From Minisyncoccia bacterium (lineage in GTDB: Bacteria > Patescibacteriota > Minisyncoccia > UBA6257 > 2-01-FULL-56-20), in the NCBI GenBank assembly GCA_050008535.1, contig JBEKML010000002.1, forward strand, positions 148,881 to 212,880: a DNA stretch of 64,000 bases, given 5' to 3'. This document shows positions 1-51,380 of this stretch, one piece after another. Each line of letters begins with the position of its first letter. The first letter of the stretch is position 1. The notes beneath the pieces were generated by a model. It was not told the DNA's origin and did no database searches. It was given only the letters and a program-made list of their open reading frames with translations. Position numbers and translations under genes: made by a program.

Positions 1-1085
1 ATCAGAGCTTCATGATCGAAAACAAAAAATATTCGGAGGTGGAATATTTCGAGAAGCTCAAAGAATACGACCCGGGAACCTCCCGCGGCATTGAATCCGC
101 AAAGGAAAAATTCGCGGAGGTCTCAAAGAACGCGATCCATAAATTCGCGCGCATAACCAAGGCCGTGAACGCCACGGGGGACAATCTCTATAATGTAAAG
201 GACGTAAAGGCATGCTTTGACCTGCACGACCTTCAAAACGTGCGGTACGCGCTTCGGGGATGGACCGTGAAGGACTCAATGGATATGTACGGCACGGACG
301 ACACCCAGTGGGATTACGAGAGCGTCAATAACGGCTTGTACGCTTCCCATCTCATCTTCACCACGAACTGCCACACGCACTGCATGGACATCCAATATTC
401 CGACTATTGCAGGTCGTCGTCCCATCTCTTCGGCTGCATCTCGGTCAAAAACAAACAATATTGCATTTTCAACAAGCAGTATCAGAAAGAGGAATACGAA
501 GCGCTGGTGCAAAAGATAAAAGCACAGATGGATGCGATGCCCTATGCGGACAAGAACGGGCGGGTGTTCAAATACGGCGAATTCTTCCCGCCGGAGATCT
601 CACCCTTTGTTTATAACGAGGTGGTGGCGCAGGAATATTTTCCCGTCACCGAGGCACAGGCAATAAAAGAGGGTTTTGGGTGGAAGAAAACAGAGGAAAA
701 GAACTATCAAATTACTTTGCCTGCGGAGCAGATCCCGGAACGCGTTACGGAGACGGACGATTTGATATTACAAAAAGTCATCGGTTGTCTTCATGGGGGA
801 CAATGCGATCATCAGTGCTCCACCGCGTTCCGCCTTATTCCGGCAGAATTGCAATTTTACAAACAAACGAACATTCCGATTCCCCGCCTTTGTCCGAACT
901 GCCGCCACTATAAGCGGCTGGGGAAAAGAAACCCCGTTACCCTGTGGCATCGGCGGTGCATGTGCGCTACGAGGCACGACCATCATCTTATGGGGCAATG
1001 CCCCAACGAGTTCGAAACCTCCTACGCCCCCGACCGCCCGGAGATCGTTTATTGCGAGCAGTGCTACCAGGCAGAGGTGGCGTAG
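1..1085 (+). CDS. Cys-rich multi-zinc-ribbon protein, paralog P1 (5'-truncated by window edge; C-terminal ~360 aa)
   Basis: Reading frame is open from the window start to the first listed Met. Shares the CFGCxSxKNKQYCIxNKQY module, the GEFFPxEISPFxYNE block and the C-terminal CPNCRHxKRL...WHRRCMC...ETSYAPDRPEIVYCEQCYxAEVA tail with ORFs 12138-13889, 51271-53130 and 53145-54896. Confidence 0.75.
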   Translation, partial: QSFMIENKKYSEVEYFEKLKEYDPGTSRGIESAKEKFAEVSKNAIHKFARITKAVNATGDNLYNVKDVKACFDLHDLQNVRYALRGWTVKDSMDMYGTDDTQWDYESVNNGLYASHLIFTTNCHTHCMDIQYSDYCRSSSHLFGCISVKNKQYCIFNKQYQKEEYEALVQKIKAQMDAMPYADKNGRVFKYGEFFPPEISPFVYNEVVAQEYFPVTEAQAIKEGFGWKKTEEKNYQITLPAEQIPERVTETDDLILQKVIGCLHGGQCDHQCSTAFRLIPAELQFYKQTNIPIPRLCPNCRHYKRLGKRNPVTLWHRRCMCATRHDHHLMGQCPNEFETSYAPDRPEIVYCEQCYQAEVA

Positions 1086-1094
1086 GGCGCCCCG

Positions 1095-1190
1095 GGCGCC
1101 GTGGAGGCGCCGGGATTTGCACCCGGTTCTCCGCGTTCCAACGACGGTGTCCTAGCTGGTAATAGACGACGCCCCCGCCATCCACGGCGG
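1095..1190 (-). other. tRNA-like / imperfect inverted-repeat structured element (possible degenerate tRNA-Pro-like)
   Basis: On the minus strand: 7-bp acceptor stem GGGGGCG/CGCCTCC plus discriminator A, and a perfect T-arm CCGGG-TGCAAAT-CCCGG, total length 75 nt. The D arm lacks GG, the anticodon stem has a C-C mismatch, and T-loop position 55 is G. An alternative long hairpin fold is also possible. Confidence 0.25.
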
Positions 1191-1443
1191 GTTTACGGTA
1201 GCACAGTAGTGATTAAAACCGCCGAAAATATTTCTAAAGAAAACATAAAACAGCCGCCGAGGCGACCGTTTTATGGGAACGCGGAGATCTAGTTCGTCGC
1301 TATTACAACAAACCGTACCGCCGTGAGACCATTGTACCGCACCACGGAGCGCAGTCAAGAAACATTTTAGAATTTTTTAATGTTTGGCGGCGGCTAGGCG
1401 GTGACGGGCCCTTAAAACGACGCGATTTGCTAGAATTAAGGCA

Positions 1444-3849
1444 ATGCTTGGGTTCTACATTCTTCTCTCGGTCGTCATAGGTGCCGTGGCGGGCATTGCG
1501 GTGTACTTCGGCATTCGCGTCGCGGTGCGGAAGCGGATCGCGTCGTCCTTGAGCACCACGCTCTTTTTGGTGAAGATCCCAAAACCGTCGATGACCGGCC
1601 AGGGGACTCCCGCCGGCGCGAGCGAGCACAGCGACCTCAAAACCGAACTTGCGCACTTTGAACAGCTCCTGGGCAGCATGGCCGCCATCCAGAAGCCGTT
1701 CACCTTCGAGATCGCGGTGCCGCACGTGGGCGAGGAGATCAGTTTTTACCTTGCCGTGCCGAAGCGCTCGTCCGAGGTGGCGGCAAAACAGATCCAGGGG
1801 CTGTGGAGCGGCGCGTCCGTCGAGGCGGCGACGGACGACTTCAATATTTTCAACGTAAACGGCGCTTCAACCGCCGCCTATATGAAACAGAAGGAGCGTT
1901 ACGGCCTGCCTATCCGCACCTATATCGAGCTTGGCACGGATTCGTTTGAGTCCATCCTCGGCGCGCTCGCGAAAATAGACGAGATCGGCGAGGGAGCGGC
2001 GCTGCAGGTCGTGATGCGGCCGGCGCCTTCGGGCGTGAAGGATGAGGTGCGGCACGTAATAGAACGGCTTAAGAAAGGCGAGACCTTCAAAAAAGCGTTC
2101 CACGGGGATTTCCACCGGTCGTTTTCCGACGCGGGCGAAGTTTTCAATCCAAAAACAAAAGAAAAGAAAGCGGAAGAAAAGCAGGAACACGTGGTGGACG
2201 AGGAAGCGGTGAAAGCACTGCAATCAAAGATCACGAAGCCGCTCTTTTTTGTGAACGTGCGGATAGTGGCGTCGGCCGGGTCGCCGTTCCAGGCGAACGA
2301 CATCCTGGACGGCATCGCGGCCGGCTTCAGTCAGTTCGCAAGCCCCATGCGGAACGAGCTCCGGGTCGTCACGCCGCGGAATCCCAGCAAGCTCATCCGC
2401 CAATTCATCGCCCGCGAGTTTGACGCCGGCCAGGCCATGACCCTCTCAACCGAAGAGATCGCAAGCTTCTACCATTTCCCGATCGCTTCCACCGAGACGC
2501 CGCGCGTGAAGTGGCTGAAGTCAAAAGAAGCCCCGCCGCCGGAAGACCTCCCGCAGAAGGGGACGCTCCTCGGCGACGCCGTCTTCCGCGGGCAGATGAA
2601 GCCGGTCTATCTCACGGATGATGACCGCCGCCGGCATCTCTACGTGATCGGGCAGACGGGCACGGGGAAATCCACATTCCTCGGCAACATGGTGATAGAA
2701 GACATCCGGGCGGGCAAGGGCGTGGCGATCATTGACCCACACGGCGACCTTGTGGAGAACGCCCTGGGCTTCGTGCCGAAGGAGCGCCTGGACGACGTGA
2801 TCTATTTCGATCCGGGCGACCTCGCGCGGCCGCTCGGCCTGAACATGCTTGATTACAATATAAACCGGCCGGAGGAAAAGACGTTCATCGTGAACGAGAT
2901 GCAAAGCATCTTCAACAAGCTCTTCCCGCCGGAAACGATGGGGCCGATGTTTGAGCAGTACATGCGGAATGCGCTCCTTTTGATGATGGAGGACATGCCG
3001 AACGAACCAACGACCCTGATCGAAGTGCCGCGCATTTTCACGGATTCCGCGTACCGCGCGCGCAAACTGGAGCGCATCCACAATCCGGTCGTTGTTGATT
3101 TCTGGCAGAAGGAAGCGGTGAAGGCGGGCGGCGAGGCGTCGCTTGCGAACATGACGCCCTATATCACCTCCAAGTTCAACAACTTCATTTCCAACGACTA
3201 TATGCGGCCGATCATCGGCCAGCCGAAGTCGGCGTTCAATTTCCGCGAGGTGATGGATTCGGGGAAAATTTTATTGATCAATCTTTCCAAGGGGAAAATA
3301 GGGGATATCAACGCGGGGCTCCTTGGGATGGTCTTTACGGGGAAGATCCTCATGGCCGCGCTCTCGCGCATTGACGTGGCGGATGCGGCGCAGCGGCGGG
3401 ACTTCAATCTTTACATAGACGAGTTCCAGAACTTTACGACGGATTCTATCGCGACGATTTTGTCCGAGGCGCGGAAGTACCGCCTGAACCTGACGATGGC
3501 GCACCAGTTCATCGGCCAGCTGACAGACAAGATCAAAGATGCGGTCTTTGGGAACGTGGGATCTATGCTTGTGTTCCGGGTTGGCGTGCAGGATGCGGAG
3601 TTTCTTGTGAAGCAATTTGAGCCGGTGTTCAACCAGAATGATTTGCTTAATATTGATAATCTGAATGCGTATGCGAAGATTCTTATTAATGGGCAGACGT
3701 CGAGGCCGTTCAATATGAAGGTGGGGACGATGTCGTGGGGAGGGGGGAATAAAGAACTTGCTGGGAAGCTTAAGGAATATTCAAGGATGAAATACGGAGC
3801 TGATCGGCAGGCTATAGAAGACGAAATTTATCGGCGGCTTCGGGAATAG
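1444..3849 (+). CDS. T4CP-like ATPase (VirD4/TraG/TraD/TrwB-type) with N-terminal TM helix and a large N-terminal domain
   Basis: Walker A HLYVIGQTGTGKST is followed by the AIIDPHGD motif, which matches TrwB HLLIVGATGTGKS...VIVDPNGD. Walker B is NLYIDEFQNF (the DEF type typical of coupling proteins). There is one N-terminal TM segment. The gene is paralogous to the partial ORF at 62778-64000. Confidence 0.6.
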   Translation: MLGFYILLSVVIGAVAGIAVYFGIRVAVRKRIASSLSTTLFLVKIPKPSMTGQGTPAGASEHSDLKTELAHFEQLLGSMAAIQKPFTFEIAVPHVGEEISFYLAVPKRSSEVAAKQIQGLWSGASVEAATDDFNIFNVNGASTAAYMKQKERYGLPIRTYIELGTDSFESILGALAKIDEIGEGAALQVVMRPAPSGVKDEVRHVIERLKKGETFKKAFHGDFHRSFSDAGEVFNPKTKEKKAEEKQEHVVDEEAVKALQSKITKPLFFVNVRIVASAGSPFQANDILDGIAAGFSQFASPMRNELRVVTPRNPSKLIRQFIAREFDAGQAMTLSTEEIASFYHFPIASTETPRVKWLKSKEAPPPEDLPQKGTLLGDAVFRGQMKPVYLTDDDRRRHLYVIGQTGTGKSTFLGNMVIEDIRAGKGVAIIDPHGDLVENALGFVPKERLDDVIYFDPGDLARPLGLNMLDYNINRPEEKTFIVNEMQSIFNKLFPPETMGPMFEQYMRNALLLMMEDMPNEPTTLIEVPRIFTDSAYRARKLERIHNPVVVDFWQKEAVKAGGEASLANMTPYITSKFNNFISNDYMRPIIGQPKSAFNFREVMDSGKILLINLSKGKIGDINAGLLGMVFTGKILMAALSRIDVADAAQRRDFNLYIDEFQNFTTDSIATILSEARKYRLNLTMAHQFIGQLTDKIKDAVFGNVGSMLVFRVGVQDAEFLVKQFEPVFNQNDLLNIDNLNAYAKILINGQTSRPFNMKVGTMSWGGGNKELAGKLKEYSRMKYGADRQAIEDEIYRRLRE

Positions 3850-4074
3850 GCCTCTGCCTGCGGCCTTGCCTTTGCGGGTACGGGCGTTCTCGCGCTCCAG
3901 CGGCGCGAGCCACCCTGCTCTCTCGCCCCGATTGCCGAAATGCACCCAATGGCATTTCGGACCAAGCCAATCGGGGCTCCGAGAGCCCCCGCCAAGGCAA
4001 GGGCGCAGGCGGAGTTCCATCCATTGAAAAGAATGGCAAAAAATCGTAAAATTTGAGAAAGTTCTAAGAAGAAA

Positions 4075-4953
4075 ATGGCCAAGAGAAAACTTATAAAGAA
4101 GTCAAGGAAGACTTTAGGAAAATTTAATGCCCGGGAGCGTAAGATAATGGAAAATCTTATGCCAGCATATTACAAACAAGGTAGCTTTGCCTTGTATCAC
4201 GGAAACTCTTTGGATGTTTTGGCCGAATTCCCCGAGAACTCGGTGGATATGATATTTGCCGATCCTCCATACAATCTTTCCAATGGTGGATTTTCAGTAC
4301 ATGCAGGGAAAATGGTAAGTGTAAATAAGGGAGATTGGGATAAAAGTAGAGGATTTAAAGGCGATTACGATTTCCATTACAAATGGCTGGAAGCAGTAAG
4401 GCGCATACTGAAGCCAGGTGGTTCATTGTGGGTGAGTGGGACTTATCATTCAATATATCAGTGCGGACACGCAATTCAGGCTTTGGGTTACCATATTCTA
4501 AACGATATTGCATGGTTCAAACCAAATGCATCGCCAAATTTAAGTTGCCGATTCTTTACAGCAAGCCATGAAACATTAATATGGGCCCGTAAAGATACGA
4601 AAGGGAAGCACGTTTTTAATTATGCGGCGATGAAAAATGGTATCTGGAACAGCGATTTTCTAAAAAAACCGAATGTGCAAATGCGATCAGTGTGGGCTAT
4701 TGGAACACCAAAATCAGAGGAAAAGAAGTTTGGCAAACACCCAACTCAAAAACCACACGAGCTATTAAAGCGTATCGTTCTTGCAAGCACCAACAAGGGA
4801 GACTTGATAGTGGATCCCTTTACGGGGAGTTCAACAACGGGCGTTGCGGCTAATCTTTATGGCAGAAAATTTATCGGCATCGATACGGAAAAAAAATTCC
4901 TCGACCTCTCCATCAAACGGTTTGAAGATATGATCAGGAATCAATTGGTATAG
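4075..4953 (+). CDS. Type II DNA methyltransferase, beta-class, probably N6-adenine (or N4-cytosine)
   Basis: Motif IV DPPY (FADPPYNL) lies N-terminal to motif I FxGxG (DPFTGSSTTG), which is the beta-class order. The gene sits in an AT-rich island. Confidence 0.8.
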   Translation: MAKRKLIKKSRKTLGKFNARERKIMENLMPAYYKQGSFALYHGNSLDVLAEFPENSVDMIFADPPYNLSNGGFSVHAGKMVSVNKGDWDKSRGFKGDYDFHYKWLEAVRRILKPGGSLWVSGTYHSIYQCGHAIQALGYHILNDIAWFKPNASPNLSCRFFTASHETLIWARKDTKGKHVFNYAAMKNGIWNSDFLKKPNVQMRSVWAIGTPKSEEKKFGKHPTQKPHELLKRIVLASTNKGDLIVDPFTGSSTTGVAANLYGRKFIGIDTEKKFLDLSIKRFEDMIRNQLV

Positions 4954-4954
4954 T

Positions 4955-5533
4955 CTACCTTTTTGTATAGCCTGGTAGGGCGGCCTGAAGAACTTCCGTG
5001 TAGTGAAGCTTATTATCAATATAGTCGCGAAGTGCTGTGAGGAGATCGTGAAACATATAGGCACCCGCGCGGAGCTTTTCGTTTTTCGAGAATAATTCGA
5101 TAACCGTTGCAACGTAATCAAGCGAGAGGGTATAAGGTTGATCTATGTGGGCATATTTTGATGTAATTTCTTCCACGGTTTCGAGTTGATAATTATTCCG
5201 TTCTTCAACTGAGAAAAATGGTTTGCTGCGATCGTAAAATTTGATGTAATATTCAATAATTTCCCGTACTTCGGCGCGGTATTGCGGAATTTTTAGAAGA
5301 AGATCAACTACCCAAAACGTATGTGTCGGCGGTCTGAGTCGTTTGTCTCCGCCAGGGATTAAGATTTTAATGACGAAGTCCAATTCAGGGTTTGCTCCGC
5401 GACTTCCTTGGAAAAGACCAATTAGTGTTCCATCCCGCGTTGTGTAGGTCTTAAAAGCAGAGACGTTTGGACGAATTTGTTTCAAATTCGTCCCGTCATA
5501 ATATTTGGGGTTGTAAACCAATGGCGCTGGCAT
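4955..5533 (-). CDS. Restriction endonuclease second part (C-terminal or specificity portion) or separate subunit
   Basis: Its start lies 4 nt after the stop of 5538-6062, in the +1 frame, on the same strand and in the same AT-rich island. No independent motifs were recognised. Confidence 0.4.
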   Translation of the reverse strand: MPAPLVYNPKYYDGTNLKQIRPNVSAFKTYTTRDGTLIGLFQGSRGANPELDFVIKILIPGGDKRLRPPTHTFWVVDLLLKIPQYRAEVREIIEYYIKFYDRSKPFFSVEERNNYQLETVEEITSKYAHIDQPYTLSLDYVATVIELFSKNEKLRAGAYMFHDLLTALRDYIDNKLHYTEVLQAALPGYTKR

Positions 5534-5537
5534 GTTG

Positions 5538-6062
5538 CTAAGTTTGAGGCTTTGGGAGACCTAAAAAATCAAGGGGAAGACTTTGAAAATAATAATGGCA
5601 ACCAACTGCTTTTATGAAGTCCAGTGTGTCTTTATATTCTGGCTTTTGGAACCAATCACTTAAAATATAAATAAACTCAGTCTCGATCCCGAGCGGCTTA
5701 AACAATTTTTGATATTGCCTCTTTTTAAAATCGCATGTTTGTAGCTTCTCGTCTACGGATCCAGCGACCGCCTGGAATTTTATTTCTATAATAAAAACTT
5801 TTTTCTGGCTTGGAACATAGAGCGCTTCGTCTGGGAGTAGCTTCTTTGAAAGTACGGTTTTATAATCTACCTCGCGCTCTTCAAGAAATCGATAAAGCTT
5901 GTTCTTGCCGATACTTTGTGCTACTACCTTTCCGGTATGCAGAATCAAGTCGCCATCTACGGAGTATCCTGGCGTTTTGGCAAAGACCAACAGTAAATTA
6001 ACCCGACCCTCAAAATCAAGCCCGACTCGCGTCCTTGCGCCACCAATCCCGTGCTTTATCAT
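5538..6062 (-). CDS. Restriction endonuclease, PD-(D/E)xK nuclease fold (N-terminal part or catalytic subunit)
   Basis: LLPDE...VFIIEIKFQ gives a PD...ExK arrangement. Convergent with the methyltransferase and AT-rich like it. Confidence 0.5.
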   Translation of the reverse strand: MIKHGIGGARTRVGLDFEGRVNLLLVFAKTPGYSVDGDLILHTGKVVAQSIGKNKLYRFLEEREVDYKTVLSKKLLPDEALYVPSQKKVFIIEIKFQAVAGSVDEKLQTCDFKKRQYQKLFKPLGIETEFIYILSDWFQKPEYKDTLDFIKAVGCHYYFQSLPLDFLGLPKPQT

Positions 6063-6155
6063 GGGCGTTTAACCAAATTTTAATCATTTTTTAATGAATT
6101 GTACAAGTTCCACGTTCCAGTGTGCTCGTCATTATCAACATGGTATAATAAACAC

Positions 6156-6470
6156 ATGAAAAGGGTGGTGGTTTTTGGAGCGCTGCTTCTCGTGGGAATC
6201 GGTTTGATCGCTGTGGCGATGCATCCTGCCTATGCTTACGTAAGTGTTCGCGGCTATTATCGGAGCAATGGGACATACGTCCAACCCTATGTGCGCTCCA
6301 GTCCGAACAGCTTGAAATATGACAACTACAATTATTCTGGAGGAAGCTTATACAACAATTCCTATTACGCACCGACAAAGAATTACAGTCCGAGCTGGTA
6401 TACACCTTCATATGTAACTGATCCATATTATTATCAGGGGAAAAGCATCTATAACTCACGTCGTTTTTAA
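6156..6470 (+). CDS. Small secreted Tyr/Asn/Ser-rich protein with signal peptide
   Basis: MKRVVVFGALLLVGIGLIAVAMHPAYA looks like a signal peptide; the mature part is rich in Y, N and S. The six-frame track start at 6099 is probably an upstream extension. Confidence 0.4.
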   Translation: MKRVVVFGALLLVGIGLIAVAMHPAYAYVSVRGYYRSNGTYVQPYVRSSPNSLKYDNYNYSGGSLYNNSYYAPTKNYSPSWYTPSYVTDPYYYQGKSIYNSRRF

Positions 6471-6585
6471 TCAAAATTTAATGATTAGTATGTTATATTT
6501 GGATTTGACGTATGATTTATAAAATGTTAAAATCCGTCATCAGCAACTTTGTCGGAGTTGTTTGTGTATAATAAAGACAACCCTT

Positions 6586-7461
6586 ATGGGGAAGAAAATA
6601 ACTAAGAAAAGAGTTCACCAAAACGAGTCACTAATAGGAGAGTTGATTGAATTGCGGACCGAAGTCTGCAAGTTGCCAAGATTGTCGCCGATCGAAAAAG
6701 AACTTCATGAGGCAGAGGTCCGTTTTGAAGCAACCTATCATTCCAATAAACTAGAGGGGAATAAGCTTTCTGAGGATGAAGCGAGAAGCGCGATAATGAT
6801 ATAAGTTTTTATGGCGTTTCCGCAGAATAAAAAAGATTTGGATATCTTAGAAGAAAGAGGCTATTGGAAGGCCTCTTCTTTTTTAAGTAATACAGTGCAC
6901 AAGCTGATTCGTAAAAATTTGCCGTTTGAACTTGGATATGTTAAGCAGGCCCACAAGATTACTTTCGATGCCGCTAATCAATCAGGCATAGCTGGCAAAT
7001 ATCGTCGTGACAATCCGGAGCTGAAGAGAATTGATGGATCATTGCTTGTTATTACGCATTGGCACAATGTTCCGAACGAAATGGCAAAATTGGATACAGA
7101 AGTACGTTTAGCCACGAGGGGATTGAGGAAGGTGAGGACGAAGGGACAGTATAGAAACATTATTGAAAAGGCTGCGCGTCTTTCTCATCGATTAGCATGT
7201 ATTCATCCTTTTGAAAACGGAAACGGACGCGCTTCACGCTTGCTCCTAAATGCTATTCTTATGCGAGCCGGATTGCACGAAGTAGCTATTAAGGTAGATA
7301 AAGATAGATACCTACGAAGTATGCGGCAGGCAGACGACGGAGACTTCTCGATGCTCAAAAAAATAATATTAGAAAGTTTGGTTGAGAATGAAAAAAAATT
7401 GTACAAGTTAGTCAAAAGGAAGCAAGCGGAACAAGGCAAGCATAAAAAGTGCCGTTCTTAG
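6586..7461 (+). pseudogene. Fic/DOC family protein (AMPylator-like) interrupted by an in-frame TAA at 6802-6804
   Basis: The upstream piece carries the Fic N-terminal YHSNKLEGNKLSEDE motif. The downstream piece, in the same frame, carries the catalytic HPFENGNGRASR (HPFx[DE]GNGR) motif. A TATAAT box lies at 6566-6571. Confidence 0.55.
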
Positions 7462-7574
7462 CGGTTTCAATATGAACTGTCGTGATCCGGTGGGGCCAGA
7501 TTCCCTACCTTACTGACTGATGGTGGTGGCGGGTGGCCCACGCTTGTTTGTGCTATACTGAACCTACAACTGAA

Positions 7575-7710
7575 TGGGTTATCCAGAGTGCGGGGAGGGA
7601 ACTGGCCCTACGATCCGCCGGCAACTTGCGAGGGCAAAGTGCTAATTCCAGCCCGAAAGGGGAAGATAAAGGTCGTAGCGCTTTTTCTTTCGGGAATGGC
7701 GTTTTTTATT
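7575..7710 (+). ncRNA. SAM-I (S-box) riboswitch with terminator-like expression platform
   Basis: GGTTATCCAGAGTGCGGGGAGGGAACTGGCCCTACGATCCGCCGGCAACT and AAAGTGCTAATTCCAGCCCGAAAGGGGAAGATAAAGG match the S-box consensus (GAGGGA.UGGCCC.AUGA..CCGGCAACC, GGUGCUAAUUCCAGC, and a P1 pairing TTATC/GATAA). A hairpin cccgaaag/ctttcggg plus a T-run follows, directly upstream of metK. Confidence 0.8.
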
Positions 7711-7738
7711 TGGTAATAAACAAAATAAAATTAAAATT

Positions 7739-8686
7739 ATGAACACAAAAATACGAACGGCGGAATTTGTTTCGCCAAGGCATCCGGACAAAATGTGCGA
7801 CCTTATCGCGGACACGCTTCTTGATGCGTTCCTTGCGGGGGATAAAAAGAGCCGCGTCGCGGCGGAGGTGATGGGCGGCCACGGGCACATCACTGTTTCG
7901 GGGGAGATCACGAGCCGGACGGACGTGGATATGGAAAAGATCGTGAAGGGCGTGGTGGGCGAGGAGTACAACGTTCACGTTTACCTTACGAAGCAGAGCC
8001 CGGAGATCGCGCAGGGCGTGGACACGGGCGGCGCGGGCGACCAGGGGATCATGATGGGGTATGCTACGCGGGAAGCCGAGAATTTTATGCCCCTGGAATA
8101 CGAGCTTGCGCGGGATCTCTGCCGGAAGATATATGCAAAATATCCGCATGACGGGAAAACGCAGGTGACGGTGGAGGGCACGAAGGTACGCACGGTCGTC
8201 GCGAGCTTTCAGGGTACAAAGACCCCGGAACTTATGGCGCTCGTGCGGGGGCTTATAAAAGCCGACGAGTATCTTGTGAATCCTGCGGGTGAGTGGATGA
8301 TGGGCGGCTTTGACGCCGATTCGGGAATTTCCGGCCGGAAGATCGTCATTGATAACTACGGCCCGGAGGTGGGCGTGGGCGGGGGATCCTTCTCCGGCAA
8401 GGATTACACAAAGGTGGACCGGAGCGGCGCCTACATGGCGCGCCGCATCGCGGTGGACTATTTGAAACAGCACGCGGACGTGGAAACGGTGCGCGTGAAG
8501 CTCGCGTACGCGATAGGGAAGGCGGAGCCCGTGATGGCGGTTTTGGACGCGGACGGCGTGGAGGTTGCCATTCAGGGATATGACCTCTCGCCTGCGGGGA
8601 TCTTCAAGTTTCTGGAGTTGGACAAGGTCCGGTGGGCGGAGACGTCGAGCTGGGGGCACTTCGGACGTGAGTTCAGTTGGGGATAG
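7739..8686 (+). CDS. metK: S-adenosylmethionine synthetase (short form)
   Basis: SPRHPDKMCDLIAD and GAGDQGIMMGYA are MetK signatures, and the C-terminal GHFGRE block is present. Confidence 0.9.
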   Translation: MNTKIRTAEFVSPRHPDKMCDLIADTLLDAFLAGDKKSRVAAEVMGGHGHITVSGEITSRTDVDMEKIVKGVVGEEYNVHVYLTKQSPEIAQGVDTGGAGDQGIMMGYATREAENFMPLEYELARDLCRKIYAKYPHDGKTQVTVEGTKVRTVVASFQGTKTPELMALVRGLIKADEYLVNPAGEWMMGGFDADSGISGRKIVIDNYGPEVGVGGGSFSGKDYTKVDRSGAYMARRIAVDYLKQHADVETVRVKLAYAIGKAEPVMAVLDADGVEVAIQGYDLSPAGIFKFLELDKVRWAETSSWGHFGREFSWG

Positions 8687-8711
8687 GGAAGAGATGCGTT
8701 AGAATAGTTGT

Positions 8712-9176
8712 ATGAAGCTGAACTACTTCGTGATTCCGCTCGTCGCGTTCCTCACGGCGTTCATCGGCGGCTTGATCACAAGCGGGGGGATGGCGTGGTA
8801 CAAGACAATAAGACTTCCCTCGTGGACGCCGCCCGGCGGCGTGATCGGCGCCGTCTGGACCGTGCTTTTTGTTTTGAGCGCCATCTCTGCGCTCATGGTT
8901 TGGAACGGAGCGCCGCATGATGCGCGCTTTTGGCTCATCATCGCCCTTTTCGTCTTGAACGCGTGCGCGAACGTTTTCTGGTCATATCTTTTCTTTGGTG
9001 CGCATTTTATGTACGCGGCATTCTGGGAAGCAATTTTTCTTGACCTCACCGTGCTCGGCCTTATTGCGCTCATCTGGCCTTTGTCGCTCACGGCGGCGCT
9101 TCTTCTCGTGCCATACGCCGTATGGGTGGCGTTCGCATCGTATCTTACGTACAGCGTTTGGCTACTGAATCATTAG
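8712..9176 (+). CDS. tspO: TspO/MBR family tryptophan-rich sensory protein
   Basis: Five TM helices and the LPSWTPPGGVIGAVWTVLF motif. Confidence 0.75.
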   Translation: MKLNYFVIPLVAFLTAFIGGLITSGGMAWYKTIRLPSWTPPGGVIGAVWTVLFVLSAISALMVWNGAPHDARFWLIIALFVLNACANVFWSYLFFGAHFMYAAFWEAIFLDLTVLGLIALIWPLSLTAALLLVPYAVWVAFASYLTYSVWLLNH

Positions 9177-9179
9177 GGG

Positions 9180-9443
9180 ATGAGGATTTTCGTAAGGGCA
9201 AAACCGGGCGCAAAAAGGGAAAGCATTCAGAAACTGCAGGAACCGGACGGTCTTTTTCCTAAAGCCGGGGCCGGAGCCACCATGCCGCAGTTCGTGGTGG
9301 CGGTCAAAGAACGGCCCACGGACGGGAAAGCGAACCGCGCTATTGAAAAAGCCATTGCGGGATATTTTAAGGTGCCGCTCGCGCGGGTGCGGATCGTTTC
9401 CGGCCACGCTTCACGCGAGAAGGTGATTTGGGTTAAAATCTAA
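9180..9443 (+). CDS. DUF167 (YggU/UPF0235) family protein
   Basis: KPGAKRESI...GKANRAIEKAIAGYFKV...VRIVSGHASREKVI pattern. Confidence 0.6.
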   Translation: MRIFVRAKPGAKRESIQKLQEPDGLFPKAGAGATMPQFVVAVKERPTDGKANRAIEKAIAGYFKVPLARVRIVSGHASREKVIWVKI

Positions 9444-9446
9444 ATA

Positions 9447-10544
9447 ATGGTCCGTTTTTTGAGCAAGGCAAAATCAACGTCGCTGCGCGGAACGGCGCTT
9501 TTGCGGCTTGATTTCAATACGAAAGACGACTGGCGGATGCGCGCGGTGCTTCCGACCATTACGCTTTTGTTGAAGAACTCTAGTAAGGTCGTGATCGTGA
9601 GCCACCGGGGCCGGCCGGCGGGATTTGACAAGAAATTGAGCTTGCGGAAAGATGCGGCGGACCTTTCGAGGCTCATTAGAAAGAAGGTGGTCTTCGTGCC
9701 GCATTTTCGTTTCGGGGAGATAAAAAGCATGGTGGCCGCCGCACCGCGCGGCGCGGTCTTCCTTTTGGAAAATCTGCGATTTTTGAAAGGCGAAGAAAAG
9801 AACGGTCCGGCGCTCGCGCGTTCGCTTGCGTCGCTCGCCGATTTTTACGTGAACGATGCCTTCGCGGTCTCACACCGGGCGAACGCATCAGTCGCCGCGG
9901 TCACGAAATTCCTGCCAGGCTACGCCGGGCTGGAATTGGAACGGGAGATCGCGTCGCTCTCGCGCGTCATGCAGCACCCGAAACACCCGCTCGTCGTCGT
10001 TCTCGGCGGGGCGAAGGCGGGAGACAAATTGGGCGTCATCAAATATTTCAAAAAGAAGACCGATTGGTTCCTGCTCGGCGGCGGTCCTGCGAACACGATT
10101 CTCTTCCTGAAAGGCGCCGACGTCAAAAAATCCGTGCGCGACCGCGATCCGCGCGATCTTAAGGCGCTCAAAAGCGTCGCGGGCTACAAAAATCTCGTGT
10201 TGCCGGATGATATTGTCTGGTGCGACAGCATGATCTGGGACATTGGCCCGAAGGCGATCAGGGTTTTCAAGAAAAAGATCGGGGAAGCGAGGACCATTTT
10301 ATGGAGCGGGCCGCTCGGCCTTATTGAGAAGAAAAAATATGCGCGCGGGAGCATTGCGGTCGCGCGCGCCGTCACACGGAACCGCCGGGCGTTCTCTGTG
10401 GCAGGCGGCGGCGAGACCGTGATGTTTCTCAAGAAATACAAGCTTGATAAAAAATTCAGCTTCATTTCCACCGGCGGGGGAGCGATGGTGGACTTTTTGG
10501 CGGGAAAGAAATTGCCGGGGATAGCGGCGCTCGAAAAAGCATGA
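9447..10544 (+). CDS. pgk: Phosphoglycerate kinase
   Basis: RLDFN, SHRGRP, LENLRFxxxEE, VNDAFAVSHRANAS, GGAKAGDK and STGGGAMVDFLAGKKLPG motifs. Confidence 0.9.
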   Translation: MVRFLSKAKSTSLRGTALLRLDFNTKDDWRMRAVLPTITLLLKNSSKVVIVSHRGRPAGFDKKLSLRKDAADLSRLIRKKVVFVPHFRFGEIKSMVAAAPRGAVFLLENLRFLKGEEKNGPALARSLASLADFYVNDAFAVSHRANASVAAVTKFLPGYAGLELEREIASLSRVMQHPKHPLVVVLGGAKAGDKLGVIKYFKKKTDWFLLGGGPANTILFLKGADVKKSVRDRDPRDLKALKSVAGYKNLVLPDDIVWCDSMIWDIGPKAIRVFKKKIGEARTILWSGPLGLIEKKKYARGSIAVARAVTRNRRAFSVAGGGETVMFLKKYKLDKKFSFISTGGGAMVDFLAGKKLPGIAALEKA

Positions 10545-11488
10545 AGTACGATATTTATTTTCATAACGATTTCGACGGGCGGGCATCGGCGGCGGTGATG
10601 CTCGCTTTTTTGCGCAGCCGCGGGGACGATATCGCGCACTACGTTCCCGTGACCTACGGTTACGAAAAACCGTGGCTCAAGGAAGACCTGGCAAAGAAGA
10701 AAAATCCGGCCATCGTCGTTGATTTTCTCTACCATCCGAAGGCCGCCTGGTGGTTTGACCATCACCGCACGACCTTCCGGGAGGAAAAATGGAAACGCGC
10801 ATTCAAGCCGGACCGGTTCCATCGTTACGATTATTCTTACAGGTCCGCCTGCCACCTGGTCTATGATTCGCTCAAAAAAGATTTTGGATGGAAGCCGCCG
10901 CGGCATTTCAAAGAGCTCGTGCGCTGGCTGGATGTTGTGGATAGCGCCCGCTACCGTTCGGCGCGGGAAACGATCGAGATGAAGCATCCTGCGCTTGAGA
11001 TAAATGCGTTCATTGAAACACTGGAGCGTACCACGAACGAGGAGAATCGCTTTCTTATCGGATTGCTTGCGAAATATCCGCTTGCCCGCGTCGTCGCGGC
11101 GCCCCGCGTTGCCCGCGCGGTCCGTGCGTTGCACAAGAAAGTCGCCCGGAGCATGGCGTTTCTCAAAAAGAACCTTTTGGTTTTCAAACGGACGACCTTC
11201 GTTGACGTGACAAAAGACCCGCTGGATGGATTGTTGCGTTATGCACCGTACTATCTCTATCCAAAGAGCATCTACAACATACGGTTGAGGCCAAAAGGAA
11301 AAGGGGTGTGGTACCTCGGTGTCGGCGCGAGCCCGTGGCGGCGCTCGGCGAATAAATTGGAATTAGGGAAGCTTATGCGCCGTCGTTATGGCGGCGGGGG
11401 ACACAAAGCCATTGGTGCGACTGAATTTTTGACGAGGGCGGACGCAATGAAAGCGTTTAAAAAAATAAACGAGCTTCTCAATCGTTAA
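10541..11488 (+). CDS. DHH family phosphoesterase (NrnA-like)
   Basis: IYFHNDFDGRASAAV covers DHH motifs I and II; WFDHHRT is the DHH motif. The start overlaps the pgk stop (ATGA). Confidence 0.7.
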   Translation: MKYDIYFHNDFDGRASAAVMLAFLRSRGDDIAHYVPVTYGYEKPWLKEDLAKKKNPAIVVDFLYHPKAAWWFDHHRTTFREEKWKRAFKPDRFHRYDYSYRSACHLVYDSLKKDFGWKPPRHFKELVRWLDVVDSARYRSARETIEMKHPALEINAFIETLERTTNEENRFLIGLLAKYPLARVVAAPRVARAVRALHKKVARSMAFLKKNLLVFKRTTFVDVTKDPLDGLLRYAPYYLYPKSIYNIRLRPKGKGVWYLGVGASPWRRSANKLELGKLMRRRYGGGGHKAIGATEFLTRADAMKAFKKINELLNR

Positions 11489-12106
11489 ATGGCGACGAAG
11501 AAAAAATATTACGCGTATTTCGTGCCGGGCGAGAATCGCGCGGGGATCACCGACGACTGGGGCGAATGCGAAAAGATCGTTTCGGGGAAGGTGGGTGCGC
11601 GGTACAAAGCGTTTGAAACAAGGGAAGACGCGGAGCGGTGGCTCGCGCGCGGCGCGGTCTATGAGGCAAAAGCGCCGCCGCCGCGATTGGCGCGCGGGAT
11701 CTATTTTGACGCGGGGACGGGCAGGGGTCTTGGCGTGGAGATCAGCGTGACCGACGAGAAAGGGAAAAATCTGCTCCATAGGGCGCTTTCGACGCGCGAG
11801 CTGAATCGTTTCGGAAAGCATCTTTTGAAAAACGCCGCGGCGACCAACAACTACGGCGAGCTGCTTGCTTTGAAATATGCTCTGAAGATCGCGCGAAAAG
11901 AAAAAGTAAAAAAGATCTTCGGCGACAGCCGGCTTGTGATAGATTATTGGTCGCAGTGGCACGTGAAACGGAAAGAACTGCCGCGCGCGACCGTGGCGCT
12001 CGCGGACGAAGTGGCGGAATTGCGGGAAGCGTTTGAGAAAAAAGGCGGCACCGTGGCGCGCATTGCGGGCGCGCACAATCCGGCGGACCTTGGGTTCCAT
12101 CGGTGA
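11489..12106 (+). CDS. RNase H family protein with N-terminal RNase H1-type hybrid-binding (Cauli_VI-like) domain
   Basis: N-terminal YYAYFVPGENRAGITDDWGECEKIVSGKVGARYKAFETREDAERWL, then catalytic-like blocks DAGTG...TNNYGELLALKYAL...GDSRLVIDYW. Confidence 0.55.
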   Translation: MATKKKYYAYFVPGENRAGITDDWGECEKIVSGKVGARYKAFETREDAERWLARGAVYEAKAPPPRLARGIYFDAGTGRGLGVEISVTDEKGKNLLHRALSTRELNRFGKHLLKNAAATNNYGELLALKYALKIARKEKVKKIFGDSRLVIDYWSQWHVKRKELPRATVALADEVAELREAFEKKGGTVARIAGAHNPADLGFHR

Positions 12107-12137: not shown

Positions 12138-13889
12138 ATGGATGCCGAAAGCCGCAACTGCGCAAAATGTAAAAGCCAGTTTGTTGTTGAGCCGGAGGAT
12201 TTTGATTTTTACGCGAAGATAAGCGTTCCGCCGCCCACGTGGTGCCCGGAGTGCCGCAATCAAAGGAGGATGGCGTGGCGCGAGGAACGCGTGCTCTACC
12301 GCGGGACCTGCGCGTTGTGCGGAAAAGCGGTGGTTACCATGCACGCGCCCGGCGGTCCCTTCACGATCTATTGCCGGGAGTGTTACAAATCCGACAAGTG
12401 GGACTCGACGAGCTACGGGCGCGACTACGATTTCAAGAAACCGTTCTTTACGCAATACCGCGAACTTATGGAAGCCGTCCCGCGGCCGGCGCTCACGGGC
12501 AATAATTTGGTCAATAGCGATTTCACGCACGGATGCGAAAGCGTAAAAAATTGTTACTACCTTTTCTGGAGCTATTTTTCGGAAAACGCGGGGAACTGCT
12601 ACGGACTGCTTCTTTCCAAAAACGCCTACGATTGCTACGTGGTGGACAATTCCGACCATGTGTACGAGTCGTTGCATTCCAACCGTATGTACAAGATCAG
12701 GTTCGGCTATTTTTCCGACGAGTGCCTCGATTCATCGTTCCTTTACAATTGCCTCGGGTGCTCTGATTGTTTTGGGTGCATCAACCTAAGGAAACAAAAA
12801 TACTGCCTTTTCAACGAAAAATTGTCCAAAGAAGAATACTCCGCGAGGATCAAGGAGTGGGACTTGGGAAGTTATAAAAAACTGCAGGAGGCGAAGGAGA
12901 AATTCCGGGCTTTGTATATGTCCGTCCCGCACCGCTTCGCCCATGTCGTAAGCAGCCAAAACGTCACGGGGGATATCATACGGGACACGAAAGATTGCAA
13001 AATATGTTTTTGCGCATTGGATGGCGTGCAAAACTGCAAGTATCTGTACGCCGGCGGCCTCAATCTCAAAGACAGCATGGATGTAAGCGCCGGCGGCGAT
13101 ACGGCGGAGTTGCTTTATGAAGTGCACGGGGTGACCGGGCATGCATCGCGGTGTTTTTTCTCGGTGGGAGGAGGGAACAGCAGGGATACCTGGTATTCCG
13201 ATTGGGCGGATAATTCATCGGATGTATTCGGCTGCGTTTCTTTAAGGAACAAGCAGTATTGCATCTTGAACAAACAATATTCCCGCGAGGAGTATGAAAA
13301 ACTTGTCCCAAAGATCAAACAGCACATGGACGCCATGCCGTTCGTGGACAAGAAGGGGCGCGCGTACAAATTCGGGGAATTTTTCCCGACGGAACTTTCC
13401 GCGTATGCCTATAACGAAACATTCGCCTTTACCTGGTATCCAAAGGTGTTAACGAAGGACGAGGTGCTTGCCGAAGGTTGGCGGTGGCAGGACCCGTCGA
13501 CACGCTCTTACGAGGTCACCATGAAGGCGGAAGGTCTTCCCGACCATATTCGTGACGCAAGCGATTCAATTTCAAAAGAGACCATCGGCTGCCTGCACGC
13601 CGGAGCGTGCAATGAACTATGCACGACCGCGTTCCGCATTTCGCCCGAGGAGCTCGCTTTCTATCGAAAGATGAATGTTGCCCTGCCGCGGTTGTGCCCA
13701 AATTGCCGGCACGTGCAACGATTGAAATGGCGGAATATTTTCCATTTGTGGCATCGGCGTTGCATGTGCATCCATGCAGGTCATTCCCATGCCGGGCAAC
13801 CGTGCCCAAATACTTTTGAGACCACTTTCTCGCCGGAAAAACCGGAGGTTGTTTATTGCGACCAGTGTTACAAAGCCGAATTCCTATGA
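12138..13889 (+). CDS. Cys-rich multi-zinc-ribbon protein, paralog P2
   Basis: N-terminal CxxCxxxFxVEPEDFxFYxKIxVPPPTWCPECR zinc ribbon. Two internal CFGCxxLRxxKYC modules. C-terminal CxTAFRIxPEELxFYRKxNxALPRLCPNCRH...WHRRCMC and a tail PEVVYCDQCYKAEFL. A TATAAT box lies at 12125-12130. Confidence 0.8.
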   Translation: MDAESRNCAKCKSQFVVEPEDFDFYAKISVPPPTWCPECRNQRRMAWREERVLYRGTCALCGKAVVTMHAPGGPFTIYCRECYKSDKWDSTSYGRDYDFKKPFFTQYRELMEAVPRPALTGNNLVNSDFTHGCESVKNCYYLFWSYFSENAGNCYGLLLSKNAYDCYVVDNSDHVYESLHSNRMYKIRFGYFSDECLDSSFLYNCLGCSDCFGCINLRKQKYCLFNEKLSKEEYSARIKEWDLGSYKKLQEAKEKFRALYMSVPHRFAHVVSSQNVTGDIIRDTKDCKICFCALDGVQNCKYLYAGGLNLKDSMDVSAGGDTAELLYEVHGVTGHASRCFFSVGGGNSRDTWYSDWADNSSDVFGCVSLRNKQYCILNKQYSREEYEKLVPKIKQHMDAMPFVDKKGRAYKFGEFFPTELSAYAYNETFAFTWYPKVLTKDEVLAEGWRWQDPSTRSYEVTMKAEGLPDHIRDASDSISKETIGCLHAGACNELCTTAFRISPEELAFYRKMNVALPRLCPNCRHVQRLKWRNIFHLWHRRCMCIHAGHSHAGQPCPNTFETTFSPEKPEVVYCDQCYKAEFL

Positions 13890-18171: not shown

Positions 18172-19329
18172 ATGTTGATTGGAGGAATATCGCCCGCGCG
18201 CATCGCGGAAAAATTCGGGTCGCCTTTGTATGTGTATGACGGCGACGCTATTCGAAAAAAGTGCAAAGAGTTAAAGAAAAGCTTTCCGGGGATGAATCTG
18301 TATTATGCCTGCAAAGCGAACACGAACCCCGAGGTCATAAAAATAATTTTTAGCGAAGGTTTTGGGATTGAAACCGTAAGCCCGGGAGAGATCAGGGTTG
18401 CAAGGAAAGCGGGCGTACCGGCTTCAAAAATAACCTTTACGTGCGGGAGCATTGATGAGGGCGAGCTTGTGGCGGTCGCAAAGCAAAATATCCGCATTTA
18501 CCTTGACTCTTTGCATCAGGTGGAGATTTTCGGAAAACATTTTCCCGGAAAAGAAATCTCGGTGCGGCTGAATCAGGGGATCGGGGCCGGTCACCACGCG
18601 CACGTCGTGACCGGTGGGCCTGATAGTAAGTTCGGCATCGATAGAGCCCACATTGTGCAGCTCAAGAAACTGGCTAAGAAATATCGATTGCGCATAACGG
18701 GGCTTCATCAGCACATCGGATCAAATATTCTGGATATACCCATCTTTTTAAAGGCCATGAGTGCTTTGTTTGATACGGCCTTTCAGTTTCCCGGTCTTGC
18801 CCATCTTGATTTTGGCGGGGGACTCGGGGTTCCTTATAAGCCCGGTGAGCATGCATTGAATATGAAAATGCTCGGGCAGAAAGTGAAAAGCGTAACTTCG
18901 CATTTTATGAAGCGGTACGGGAAGTCCGTCGAAATGTCATTTGAACCGGGCAGGTATCTTGTCGCCCAAGCCGGGCATCTGATCGTTCAGGTGAACGATA
19001 TAAAACGCAATCCGACGAAAACGTTTGTCGGCGTAAATTCCGGTTTTAACCATCTTATTCGTCCGGCAATGTACGGATCGTACCATGAGATCGTGAACGT
19101 GACGCATCCCAAAAACAAACGCGAAAAAGTCACGGTCGCCGGAAATTTATGCGAGTCAGGGGACATATTTGCGCGGGATCGCATACTCCCGGCTCCGGAA
19201 TTGGGAGATATTCTTGTCGTTAAAAACGCGGGCGCATACGGCTACACTATGAGTTCCGATTATAATCTACGCCCCAAGCCCCGCGAGATTCTTATTTCAA
19301 AAAATAAAACCAAAATGATCCGAAAATGA
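18172..19329 (+). CDS. lysA: Diaminopimelate decarboxylase (PLP-dependent, fold type III)
   Basis: YACKANTNPEV, EPGRYLVAQAG, CESGD and GAYGYTMSSDYN motifs. Confidence 0.7.
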   Translation: MLIGGISPARIAEKFGSPLYVYDGDAIRKKCKELKKSFPGMNLYYACKANTNPEVIKIIFSEGFGIETVSPGEIRVARKAGVPASKITFTCGSIDEGELVAVAKQNIRIYLDSLHQVEIFGKHFPGKEISVRLNQGIGAGHHAHVVTGGPDSKFGIDRAHIVQLKKLAKKYRLRITGLHQHIGSNILDIPIFLKAMSALFDTAFQFPGLAHLDFGGGLGVPYKPGEHALNMKMLGQKVKSVTSHFMKRYGKSVEMSFEPGRYLVAQAGHLIVQVNDIKRNPTKTFVGVNSGFNHLIRPAMYGSYHEIVNVTHPKNKREKVTVAGNLCESGDIFARDRILPAPELGDILVVKNAGAYGYTMSSDYNLRPKPREILISKNKTKMIRK

Positions 19330-19365
19330 TTAGTTGCAGGGCCACGATATGTTATAATTAAGCCT

Positions 19366-19785
19366 ATGAATAAATTCATATGGGAGGACAAATATAGCGT
19401 GGGCATTTCCTCGCTTGACGAGCAACACAAACATTTCTTTGAAATCGCCGACGACATTGTTGATTTGCTCGGGCGCGGAGATTTCAATAAAGATGAGCTT
19501 TCCGCGCTGATAGTGAAATTGGCGAATCATGCTTTTGTCCACCTTAAAACAGAGGAAGATTATTTCGACAACCTTCATTATTTAAGCGCACCCCTTCATG
19601 TTGAAGCACACAAATTGTACAGAAAGAAAGTTGAGGATTATCTTCAGATGATACAAAGCCCGAACGCGGACATTAAAACGCTTGCCGACGAAGTCGCTAC
19701 TTTCGCAATATATTGGCTTTCAGACCATATTCTACTCATGGACAAGCAATATACGGTTTTTTTCAAAGAACACGGAGTTAAGTAA
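19366..19785 (+). CDS. Hemerythrin-like (bacteriohemerythrin) protein
   Basis: WEDKYSVGISSLDEQHKHFF and the later His/Glu/Asp ligand pattern. The gene is AT-rich relative to its flanks. Confidence 0.7.
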   Translation: MNKFIWEDKYSVGISSLDEQHKHFFEIADDIVDLLGRGDFNKDELSALIVKLANHAFVHLKTEEDYFDNLHYLSAPLHVEAHKLYRKKVEDYLQMIQSPNADIKTLADEVATFAIYWLSDHILLMDKQYTVFFKEHGVK

Positions 19786-50189: not shown

Positions 50190-51380
50190 ATGATCCAGCG
50201 TGGCATCGCTTCTTTCGGGCTTGATTACGGCCGCTGTCCACCGTGGCTTTTTGAACGGATGGTGAAGCTCGGCCGCGAGATGGCATATGTGCTCGTCGCC
50301 GAGTACGGCCCGGATGAATTCATAAAGCGGATCGCGGATCCGGCATGGTTCCAGTCGCTCGGCACGGTACTGGCGTTTGATTGGAATGCATCGGGGCTCA
50401 CGACCATTCTGACCGCGGCGCTGAAAGAAGCTATCCGCGGCCGCGAGCGCGAGTTGGGGATTTTTATCTGCGGCGGAAAAGGGAAAACCTCGCGCAAAAC
50501 GCCGGAGGAGATCATGCAATGGGGCGAGAAGCTCTCGCTTCCCGCGCCTGCAACGAACAACCTTGTCTACAATTCGAAAATGAGCGCAAAGGTGGATAGC
50601 GCGCTCGTGCAGGACGGGTTCCAGCTTTATCACCATTCGTTTTTCTTTTCGCGCGGCGGCGCGTGGGCGGTCGTCCAGCAGGGGATGAACAAGGAAAAAC
50701 GCTCGGCACGACGGTATCACTGGTTTTCAGAAAATATCAACGACCTTGTTTCAGAGCCGCATTCCGGTATCTCTTCGCCCGTGGTTTTGAACCGCGTTTT
50801 AAATCTTACGGCGAAACAGAGTACGCAAACGCGCGAGATTTCCACCGAGCTTGTGCAGGCGGGCTACGCAACGCTCATGAAAGACATCCAACTTTTGCGC
50901 AAGTATTCCTCGCCGCTTTCGCAGATGGCGCAATTTGAGAACGCGCGCGGGGAGCAGCTTTCGCTTTTGAACCTTGAAACGCGCGAGTTCAAATCCCACC
51001 CGGTGGTATACGAGGATTTTTCAAAGAGCAAATATCTGGAAAAGGTGCTCGCGAAAGTAACCGACCGGAAGCCGGAGAATTATGAAAAACTGATCGCCAT
51101 TGAGGGCGTGGGGCCGAAGACCGTGCGTGCCCTCGCGCTCGTAGGCGAAGTGATCTATGGTGCAAAGCCCTCCTATGAAGATCCTGCGCGTTACAGCTTT
51201 GCGCATGGCGGTAAGGATGCCACGCCGTATCCCGTGGACCGCATAACCTACGACCAGACGATCACGATCCTTGGCGAAGCGGTGCGCAAAACGCGACTCT
51301 CGCCGGACGAAAAACGCCGCGCGCTCGGACGGCTGCAGGTCGGGAGAAGCGGTCAGCAAGGCGCCGGACGGGTGCTATAA
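50190..51380 (+). CDS. DUF763-like protein
   Basis: Large conserved hypothetical protein with an IEGVGPKTVRAL helix-hairpin-helix-like motif. Confidence 0.4.
   Translation: MIQRGIASFGLDYGRCPPWLFERMVKLGREMAYVLVAEYGPDEFIKRIADPAWFQSLGTVLAFDWNASGLTTILTAALKEAIRGRERELGIFICGGKGKTSRKTPEEIMQWGEKLSLPAPATNNLVYNSKMSAKVDSALVQDGFQLYHHSFFFSRGGAWAVVQQGMNKEKRSARRYHWFSENINDLVSEPHSGISSPVVLNRVLNLTAKQSTQTREISTELVQAGYATLMKDIQLLRKYSSPLSQMAQFENARGEQLSLLNLETREFKSHPVVYEDFSKSKYLEKVLAKVTDRKPENYEKLIAIEGVGPKTVRALALVGEVIYGAKPSYEDPARYSFAHGGKDATPYPVDRITYDQTITILGEAVRKTRLSPDEKRRALGRLQVGRSGQQGAGRVL

Follow-up and report, generated by a model that had tools for sequence, protein, structure and literature searches.

The window analyzed here, a 64,000-nucleotide (nt) stretch of contig JBEKML010000002.1, comes from a bacterium of the class Minisyncoccia within Minisyncoccota, also known as Patescibacteria or the candidate phyla radiation (CPR), and this work concerns a compact low-GC island near its left end (4020..7465; 3.45 kb; no strand assigned; 41% GC, with about 54% in the host). 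From left to right, the island carries a plus-strand gene for a beta-class N6-adenine DNA methyltransferase, two minus-strand genes designated orf192 and orf174, a plus-strand gene for a small Tyr-rich protein, and a plus-strand pair composed of an antitoxin-like open reading frame (ORF) and a Fic-domain gene. It lies between the gene for a large ATPase, described in the initial annotation as resembling a type IV coupling protein (T4CP), and an S-adenosylmethionine (SAM) riboswitch of type SAM-I (7576-7672; 59 bits) that is followed by metK.

In 500-nt and 1-kb windows, the GC content dropped from 0.54-0.64 to 0.38-0.44 over approximately 4020-7465. The 3.48-kb island block, with a GC content of 0.41, was the lowest in the 64 kb, while the remaining 3.5-kb windows averaged 0.540 ± 0.018 and never fell below 0.483. 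Thus, the AT-rich island of about 40% GC that had been proposed between the T4CP-like gene and the riboswitch-metK region turned out to be the global minimum of the window. The difference was most pronounced at third codon positions, with a GC content there (GC3) of 0.41-0.48 in the six island genes versus 0.61-0.76 in eight flanking genes, and the contrast in composition was confirmed as far beyond chance. The left edge of the island was placed at ∼4015-4025 and the right edge just past the Fic stop at 7461; by 7547, the sequence was again of the host type and common to the metK leaders of relatives.

Comparison with related genomes revealed that island genes were present in none of 160 flank-anchored loci (80 T4CP-anchored genome loci and 80 metK-anchored metagenome loci). 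The same genes occurred in the same place only within the same species (100% identical neighboring protein) and were absent from relatives at 84 to 44% identity. In relatives with a 72-75% identical ATPase homologue (L008, L009, and L010), the ATPase gene was directly followed by pgk, orf315, and an RNase H-like gene, which occupy positions 9447-12106 of the window, while it was followed by xseA in an 84% relative and by an ndh-like gene in a 79% relative; therefore, the interval downstream of the ATPase gene is a variable spot within a conserved backbone. A search via the flanking genes for an exact empty-site allele found none in the collections, the adjacency of the T4CP-like gene and metK being unique to the species, and the nearest equivalent of an empty site is the T4CP-pgk junction of relatives. 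Separately, metK never adjoined the ATPase gene in the 80 metK-anchored loci. The block of host-type GC content comprising the SAM riboswitch, metK, tspO, and DUF167 (7576-9443) was likewise missing between the ATPase gene and pgk in L008-L010, and therefore the entire 5.6-kb ATPase-pgk interval is lineage specific, with the island being only part of it.

Low-GC restriction-modification (RM) cassettes and the same Fic pair recur as inserts at unrelated sites of other CPR genomes. The block of methyltransferase (M), orf192, and orf174 shared 73% DNA identity and 77-81% protein identity with a block on a Liptonbacteria contig, where the copy has a GC content of 0.37-0.38 within a 0.47-GC locus. 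A two-gene unit of M and orf192 (0.36-0.37 GC) was inserted between rseP/proS and frr/holB, with flanks of 0.47-0.50 GC (L186), and a Levyibacteria genome carried a two-gene M-orf174 unit in its str operon, flanked by rpsG and fusA (L093, 4154-5522). Considering the composition contrast, the absence of the island at syntenic sites, and the occurrence of the same modules as low-GC inserts elsewhere, we regard it as highly likely that the island is a horizontally acquired, composite defense/addiction island that consists of three autonomous modules and derives from lower-GC CPR bacteria, which upholds the earlier view of it as horizontally acquired defense or addiction cargo. Genes with DUF2188 were also repeatedly seen beside RM cassettes (L093, L094, and L186).

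The methyltransferase (4075..4953, plus strand, 292 amino acids [aa]) matched PF01555 (E = 7e-57) and the PADLOC model MTase_II (7e-97). Both the catalytic motif (DPPY at residues 63-66) and the SAM-binding motif (FTGSSTTG near residue 250) expected of a type II RM methyltransferase were present, and the order of DPPY before FxGxG is that of the beta class, in agreement with the initial annotation. The protein aligned with CcrM (PDB 6pbd; E = 2.8e-60) over CcrM residues 9-257 of 366 only and, across 250 residues that include the recognition region, shared ∼45-50% identity with the catalytic domain of CcrM; VQMRSxWxI and HPTQKP were conserved between the two. The score against the NCBIfam CcrM equivalog NF050803 was 243 bits versus a cutoff of 830 bits, i.e., short of a full-length match, and the protein ends at 292 aa without the conserved 80-residue C-terminal DNA-binding segment of CcrM and M.HinfI. 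M.HhaII recognizes GANTC without this segment (PMC7672430). Because the C-terminal segment is missing, the predicted architecture of the methyltransferase resembles that of HhaII, and its specificity is probably GANTC, as judged from this degree of identity (∼45-50%) with the catalytic domain of CcrM. Nothing usable on a named GANTC system of Neisseria turned up in a literature search. In other CPR genomes, members of the same methyltransferase family were fused to a complete LexA with DNA-binding domain and S24 peptidase (L184, 5197-6687; L186, 4573-6018), which suggests an RM methyltransferase regulated by the SOS response or by self-cleavage.

On the minus strand, orf174 (5538..6062, 174 aa) encodes a predicted PD-ExK type II restriction endonuclease and is followed, after 4 nt, by orf192. 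The D...ExK residues of orf174 were invariant, and its modeled fold was that of restriction enzymes, resembling BstEII and NgoMIV, while no match to a restriction enzyme family of PADLOC, Pfam, or NCBIfam was obtained beyond a sub-threshold hit to PF20472. orf174 is a putative PD-ExK endonuclease of the homodimer type. Moreover, M-orf174 pairs recur in other genomes, so that the methyltransferase has an adjacent nuclease with intact catalytic residues that is conserved as its partner, as in type II RM systems. A description of this region as two convergent PD-(D/E)xK nuclease ORFs holds in part: both ORFs converge on the methyltransferase gene, with stops 1 nt apart, but they share the minus strand and are not convergent with each other, and membership in the PD-(D/E)XK group is demonstrable for orf174 but not for orf192. 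The two ORFs were also considered as halves of one frameshifted gene, which was rejected since hundreds to thousands of full-length homologues of each occur as stand-alone proteins. A decayed M-orf174 system, with both genes frameshifted, was observed beside a DpnI-like gene in Neisseria gonorrhoeae (L181; NZ_CP119140.1, 10.2-11.5 kb), in a 2.17-Mb chromosome that is listed as a plasmid in PLSDB.

The second minus-strand gene, orf192 (4955..5533; its stop is the one 1 nt from the methyltransferase stop), encodes an uncharacterized RM-linked protein that is a candidate second restriction nuclease. It belongs to a family of ∼190-aa proteins with 76% mean identity, which formed ∼135 clusters at 50% identity among 1.84 billion representative proteins. 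Searches for a known family or fold, for a helix-turn-helix (HTH) match, and for the PD-(D/E)XK hallmarks (core fold, D...(D/E)xK motif, and profile or fold similarity to members) were all negative for this protein, and its model was largely helical. Residues D52, H71, W74, D77, K81, E152, and K153 were kept down to 18% identity, and a distant member was fused to the C terminus of a D12 methyltransferase. Across seven kinds of context (the window, L086, L087/88, L090-92/L183, L184/85, L186, and L089), orf192 was always positioned tail to tail with a gene of an RM locus containing the same methyltransferase family (70-79% identity). Its companion nuclease was orf174 in the window, L086, L087/88, and L090/L183 and a MutH-like nuclease in place of orf174 in L184/185, while in L186 the methyltransferase had orf192 as its sole partner and no other nuclease was present. 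The family tracks the methyltransferase rather than the nuclease.

Because orf192 follows the methyltransferase whatever the nuclease, and once as its only partner, we tentatively read it as a second restriction nuclease of unrecognized fold acting under the same methylation, an assignment to which we give slightly less than an even chance. A doubtful but serious possibility is that orf192 is instead a non-nuclease accessory, such as a regulator of R/M timing, a cofactor of the methyltransferase, or an inhibitor of the endonuclease. The largely helical model, the failure to find a nuclease-like fold, the attachment of the family to the methyltransferase and not to any single nuclease, the fused member, and the occurrence of two-gene M-orf174 systems without orf192 all fit such a role. 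However, the controllers known from RM systems are small proteins with an HTH whose genes precede R, unlike orf192, which follows R or converges on M or R and gave no HTH match. Moreover, the L186 insert is a compact low-GC two-gene unit with the canonical R-M layout in which orf192 alone accompanies M, and the His/Asp/Glu/Lys set is conserved across remote members, both of which speak against an accessory role.

Between the RM cassette and the Fic pair, a plus-strand gene (6156..6470) encodes a 104-aa protein rich in Tyr, Ser, and Asn that is predicted to be secreted or membrane anchored. Its N terminus (MKRVVVFGALLLVGIGLIAVAMHPAYA) shows a KR-hydrophobic-AYA pattern, and 18 Tyr, 13 Ser, and 8 Asn occur among the 77 mature residues, in line with the small Tyr-rich secreted protein that had been annotated. 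The sole family match was a marginal one to PHROG 29674 (E = 1.3e-4), a family without assigned function, and no homologues were found in phages or among the loci examined. A 26-nt direct repeat, TTTTAATCA...TTTAATGA..GTA, with copies that are 81% identical (6078-6103 and 6465-6490), brackets the gene, which hints that the Tyr-rich gene is a separate insert, or else the repeat is a chance match in AT-rich DNA.

The Fic pair, on the plus strand, comprises an antitoxin-like ORF at 6586..6804 (FicA72; 72 aa from ATG, or 80 aa from TTG 6562; motif SNKLEG) and, at 6811..7461, a stand-alone Fic-domain protein of 216 aa (Fic216; motif HPFENGNGRASR; PF02661, E = 1.2e-15), which is the Fic/DOC gene recognized initially. 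Fic216 matched the PADLOC models PDC-S04 (3.8e-18) and SoFic (2e-12). Fic antitoxins are defined by an inhibitory-helix motif, (S/T)xxxE(G/N), which in class I is supplied in trans (PMC3667792), and the SNKLEG of the upstream 72-aa ORF fits this motif. Approximately 110 homologues of Fic216 (40-86% identity) were 200-225 aa long (median, 219) and matched the 216-aa part only. In L097/L098 and L099/L100, a separate 63-67-aa ORF with YxSNKLEGNxLS was found directly upstream of Fic; its stop is at the same place as in the window in L097/98 despite 68% DNA identity, and the upstream ORF and Fic are in different frames in L099/100. Because the homologues are of this length and the upstream motif-bearing ORFs are separate, the Fic gene is not disrupted, contrary to the initial annotation; the two-ORF layout is the family norm, and the locus is, on sequence grounds, a conserved bicistronic pair of a putative antitoxin and toxin of class I type.

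It is improbable that the locus is a class II Fic gene freshly killed by a nonsense mutation, even though the 80-aa and 216-aa ORFs share one reading frame, with one TAA and 6 nt between them. The PADLOC PDC-S04 profiles span both ORFs, and a recent break would also fit the existence of a fused 331-aa homologue (P0284; 49% identity, 92% coverage) and of remoter relatives, 311-325 aa long, with the inhibitory motif in cis. However, the fused 331-aa relative is the exception in the family, both ORFs of the window are intact with all motif residues present, and neither the homologues confined to the 216-aa part nor the separate upstream ORFs of L097-L100 would be expected of a pseudogene. Programmed read-through of the TAA was rejected, given the different frames of the two ORFs in L099/L100.

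A further reading takes the island for cargo located at the end of an integrative or conjugative element for which the upstream ATPase would be the coupling protein, since the ATPase had been taken as the mark of a mobile region. The 801-aa protein combines DUF8128 and DUF87; it did score above threshold in Pfam against T4SS-DNA_transf (31.4 bits) and TrwB_AAD_bind (22.9 bits), and its matches to TraD/VirD4 NCBIfam models were weak. However, its gene has the GC content (0.57) and GC3 (0.76) of the host, more than 597 homologues were found in Patescibacteria genomes with pgk conserved downstream, and its upstream neighbors are the housekeeping genes mreB, mreC, PBP2, galT, and rplU. Relatives retain the ATPase without the island, with a direct ATPase-pgk junction. 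No integrase, transposase, relaxase, or type IV secretion system (T4SS) gene, VirB4 included, was found among the called genes within ±10 kb of the island, and the only tRNAs, none of them within that range, were at 23.6 and 38.9 kb. The co-location with a relaxase or T4SS and the patchy distribution that characterize a conjugative coupling protein are therefore lacking, and the ATPase is a conserved core gene of Patescibacteria, not a marker of a conjugative element. In the same vein, the island has the foreign composition and syntenic absence of integrative islands without their integrase, tRNA, attachment (att) sites, or repeats, and a search of the flanks for direct or inverted repeats as att sites gave only short matches at the level of chance. 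Membership in a conjugative element is thus very unlikely, and the island is an ordinary horizontally acquired defense island; we can only infer its route of entry, which might have been homologous replacement after natural transformation.

Native low-GC DNA or a chimeric assembly is scarcely credible, despite the metagenome-assembled source and one Logan contig (L005) that ends 100 nt ahead of the island, because L001 and L002 match the island exactly across both junctions and L003 and L004 do so across the left one (four samples assembled independently with different assemblers), the L005 break is located within a 27-nt inverted repeat instead of at the edge of the island, the GC3 contrast amounts to 0.25-0.35, and the modules are found elsewhere as portable low-GC units.

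Some observations weigh against our interpretation of the island. Neither an integrase nor direct repeats at the flanks, a duplicated target site, or an empty-site allele turned up that would show how the island was inserted. GANTC was not depleted in the host (Markov observed/expected ratio [O/E], 0.92), which neither supports nor excludes GANTC specificity, and the recognition sequence and cleavage by the RM system are predicted from sequence. In the Fic family, HPFENGNGRASR departs from the canonical HxFx(D/E)GNGRxxR while agreeing at all other motif positions, and of the 117 family members showing the Fic motif, 112 have Asn where the Mg-binding D/E would be expected. AMPylation activity is uncertain because of this replacement; deviating Fic motifs tend to accompany other activities (PMC3667792).

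Additional features were recorded in and around the island. Directly after the ATPase stop and abutting the left edge of the island, a GC-rich, highly structured 179-nt element of host-type composition (3846..4024, plus strand) has 27-nt inverted-repeat arms and a three-way-junction fold (minimum free energy, -112.5 kcal/mol; z = -9.7). It gave no match in Rfam, is present in a single copy, and is confined to the same species; it is not counted here as part of the island. The break of contig L005 lies within this element. In a Liptonbacteria relative (L011), a different long inverted repeat occupies the equivalent position. Within the island, promoter-like sites precede the methyltransferase gene (TTGAAA-17-TAAAAT; 4024..4052, plus strand), the orf174-orf192 operon (6077..6105, minus strand), and the Fic pair (TTGACG-17-TAAAAT, with TG; 6505..6533, plus strand); these are consensus matches only, and the total count of such sites was not above chance.

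Elsewhere in the window, four Cys-rich paralogues of ∼580-620 aa (38-45% identity) with internal repeats were found at 12-1085, 12138-13883, 51271-53130, and 53145-54896. They had no Pfam match, each is situated in a stretch of locally lower GC content, and two of them bracket the block from the ATPase to the RNase H-like gene. Contig L002, from the same species, carries one more copy in tandem upstream of the ATPase, i.e., copy number varies at the strain level. A milder second low-GC stretch (18172-19785; 0.44-0.50) contains genes for an ornithine/diaminopimelate-type pyridoxal phosphate decarboxylase and a hemerythrin-domain protein. In the host part of the window (1-4020 and 7501-64000), AGNCT and CTNAG were scarce, with 41 occurrences observed for each versus ∼232 expected at zero order (Markov O/E, 0.51 and 0.72, respectively), which may reflect avoidance of CTAG/AG-CT or another RM specificity.

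As to how the island might work, the methyltransferase would mark host DNA against the island nucleases, while orf174, and probably also orf192, would cut unmarked incoming DNA. The convergent, abutting arrangement of the M unit and the R-orf192 unit could leave room for mutual transcriptional interference. In the Fic module, the glutamate of FicA72, located on the inhibitory helix supplied in trans, would block the ATP site of Fic216, and loss of the antitoxin would free Fic216 to modify a cellular target, with growth arrest of a postsegregational or abortive-infection-like kind as the presumed outcome. The RM and Fic modules may thus double as addiction systems, and such an action would account for its fixation in each of the four populations sampled.

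These findings document a portable RM cassette among ultra-small CPR bacteria, which rely on DNA uptake and episymbiosis. The orf192 family, being compact, well conserved, RM linked, and without a known fold, represents a tractable candidate for a new type of restriction enzyme, and the Fic subfamily is one in which the active-site acid is systematically swapped for Asn. The joint proposal that orf192 founds a new family of nucleases or methylation-gated effectors whose fold differs from all solved structures, that the cassette is an RM system of one methyltransferase and two unrelated nucleases moving as a unit among CPR bacteria, and that the Asn-variant Fic maybe has a chemistry other than Mg-dependent AMPylation is offered with considerable reserve. 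In addition, the readings of a "conjugation ATPase" and of a "broken Fic" are corrected.

Compared with known systems, the modeled fold of orf174 resembles those of NgoMIV, Cfr10I, Bse634I, and BstEII-like enzymes, but the identity is just 7-17%, and these enzymes are 280-310 aa long versus 174 aa for orf174. The methyltransferase shares with the HhaII and HinfI GANTC RM systems and with CcrM the features of a beta-class DPPY N6-adenine enzyme and an alignable recognition region. R.HhaII and R.HinfI are predicted PD-(D/E)XK enzymes (PMC2441816), as is orf174, whereas the island cassette differs from these systems in having a third conserved gene, orf192. The Fic locus has the organization of class I Fic toxin-antitoxin (TA) systems such as VbhA/VbhT and FicA/FicT, in which a small upstream (S/T)xxxE(G/N) protein is followed by a Fic protein with HxFxxGNGRxxR. 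It departs from them in the Asn that replaces the Mg-coordinating D/E throughout the family (HPFxNGNGRxSR) and in the existence of fused, class II-like relatives; similarity of Fic216 to VbhT was marginal (E = 1.3e-4), with better matches to the PADLOC candidate PDC-S04 and to TIGR02613, "mobile mystery protein B." As a whole, the island is most readily compared with mobile RM units and defense islands between housekeeping genes. Although the target-site duplication and empty-site allele of such units were not found for it, the island is likewise compact and of foreign composition, combines RM with TA genes, and lacks its own recombinase, and the chromosomal site of the same cassette varies among genomes, being, for instance, between rpsG and fusA in L093.

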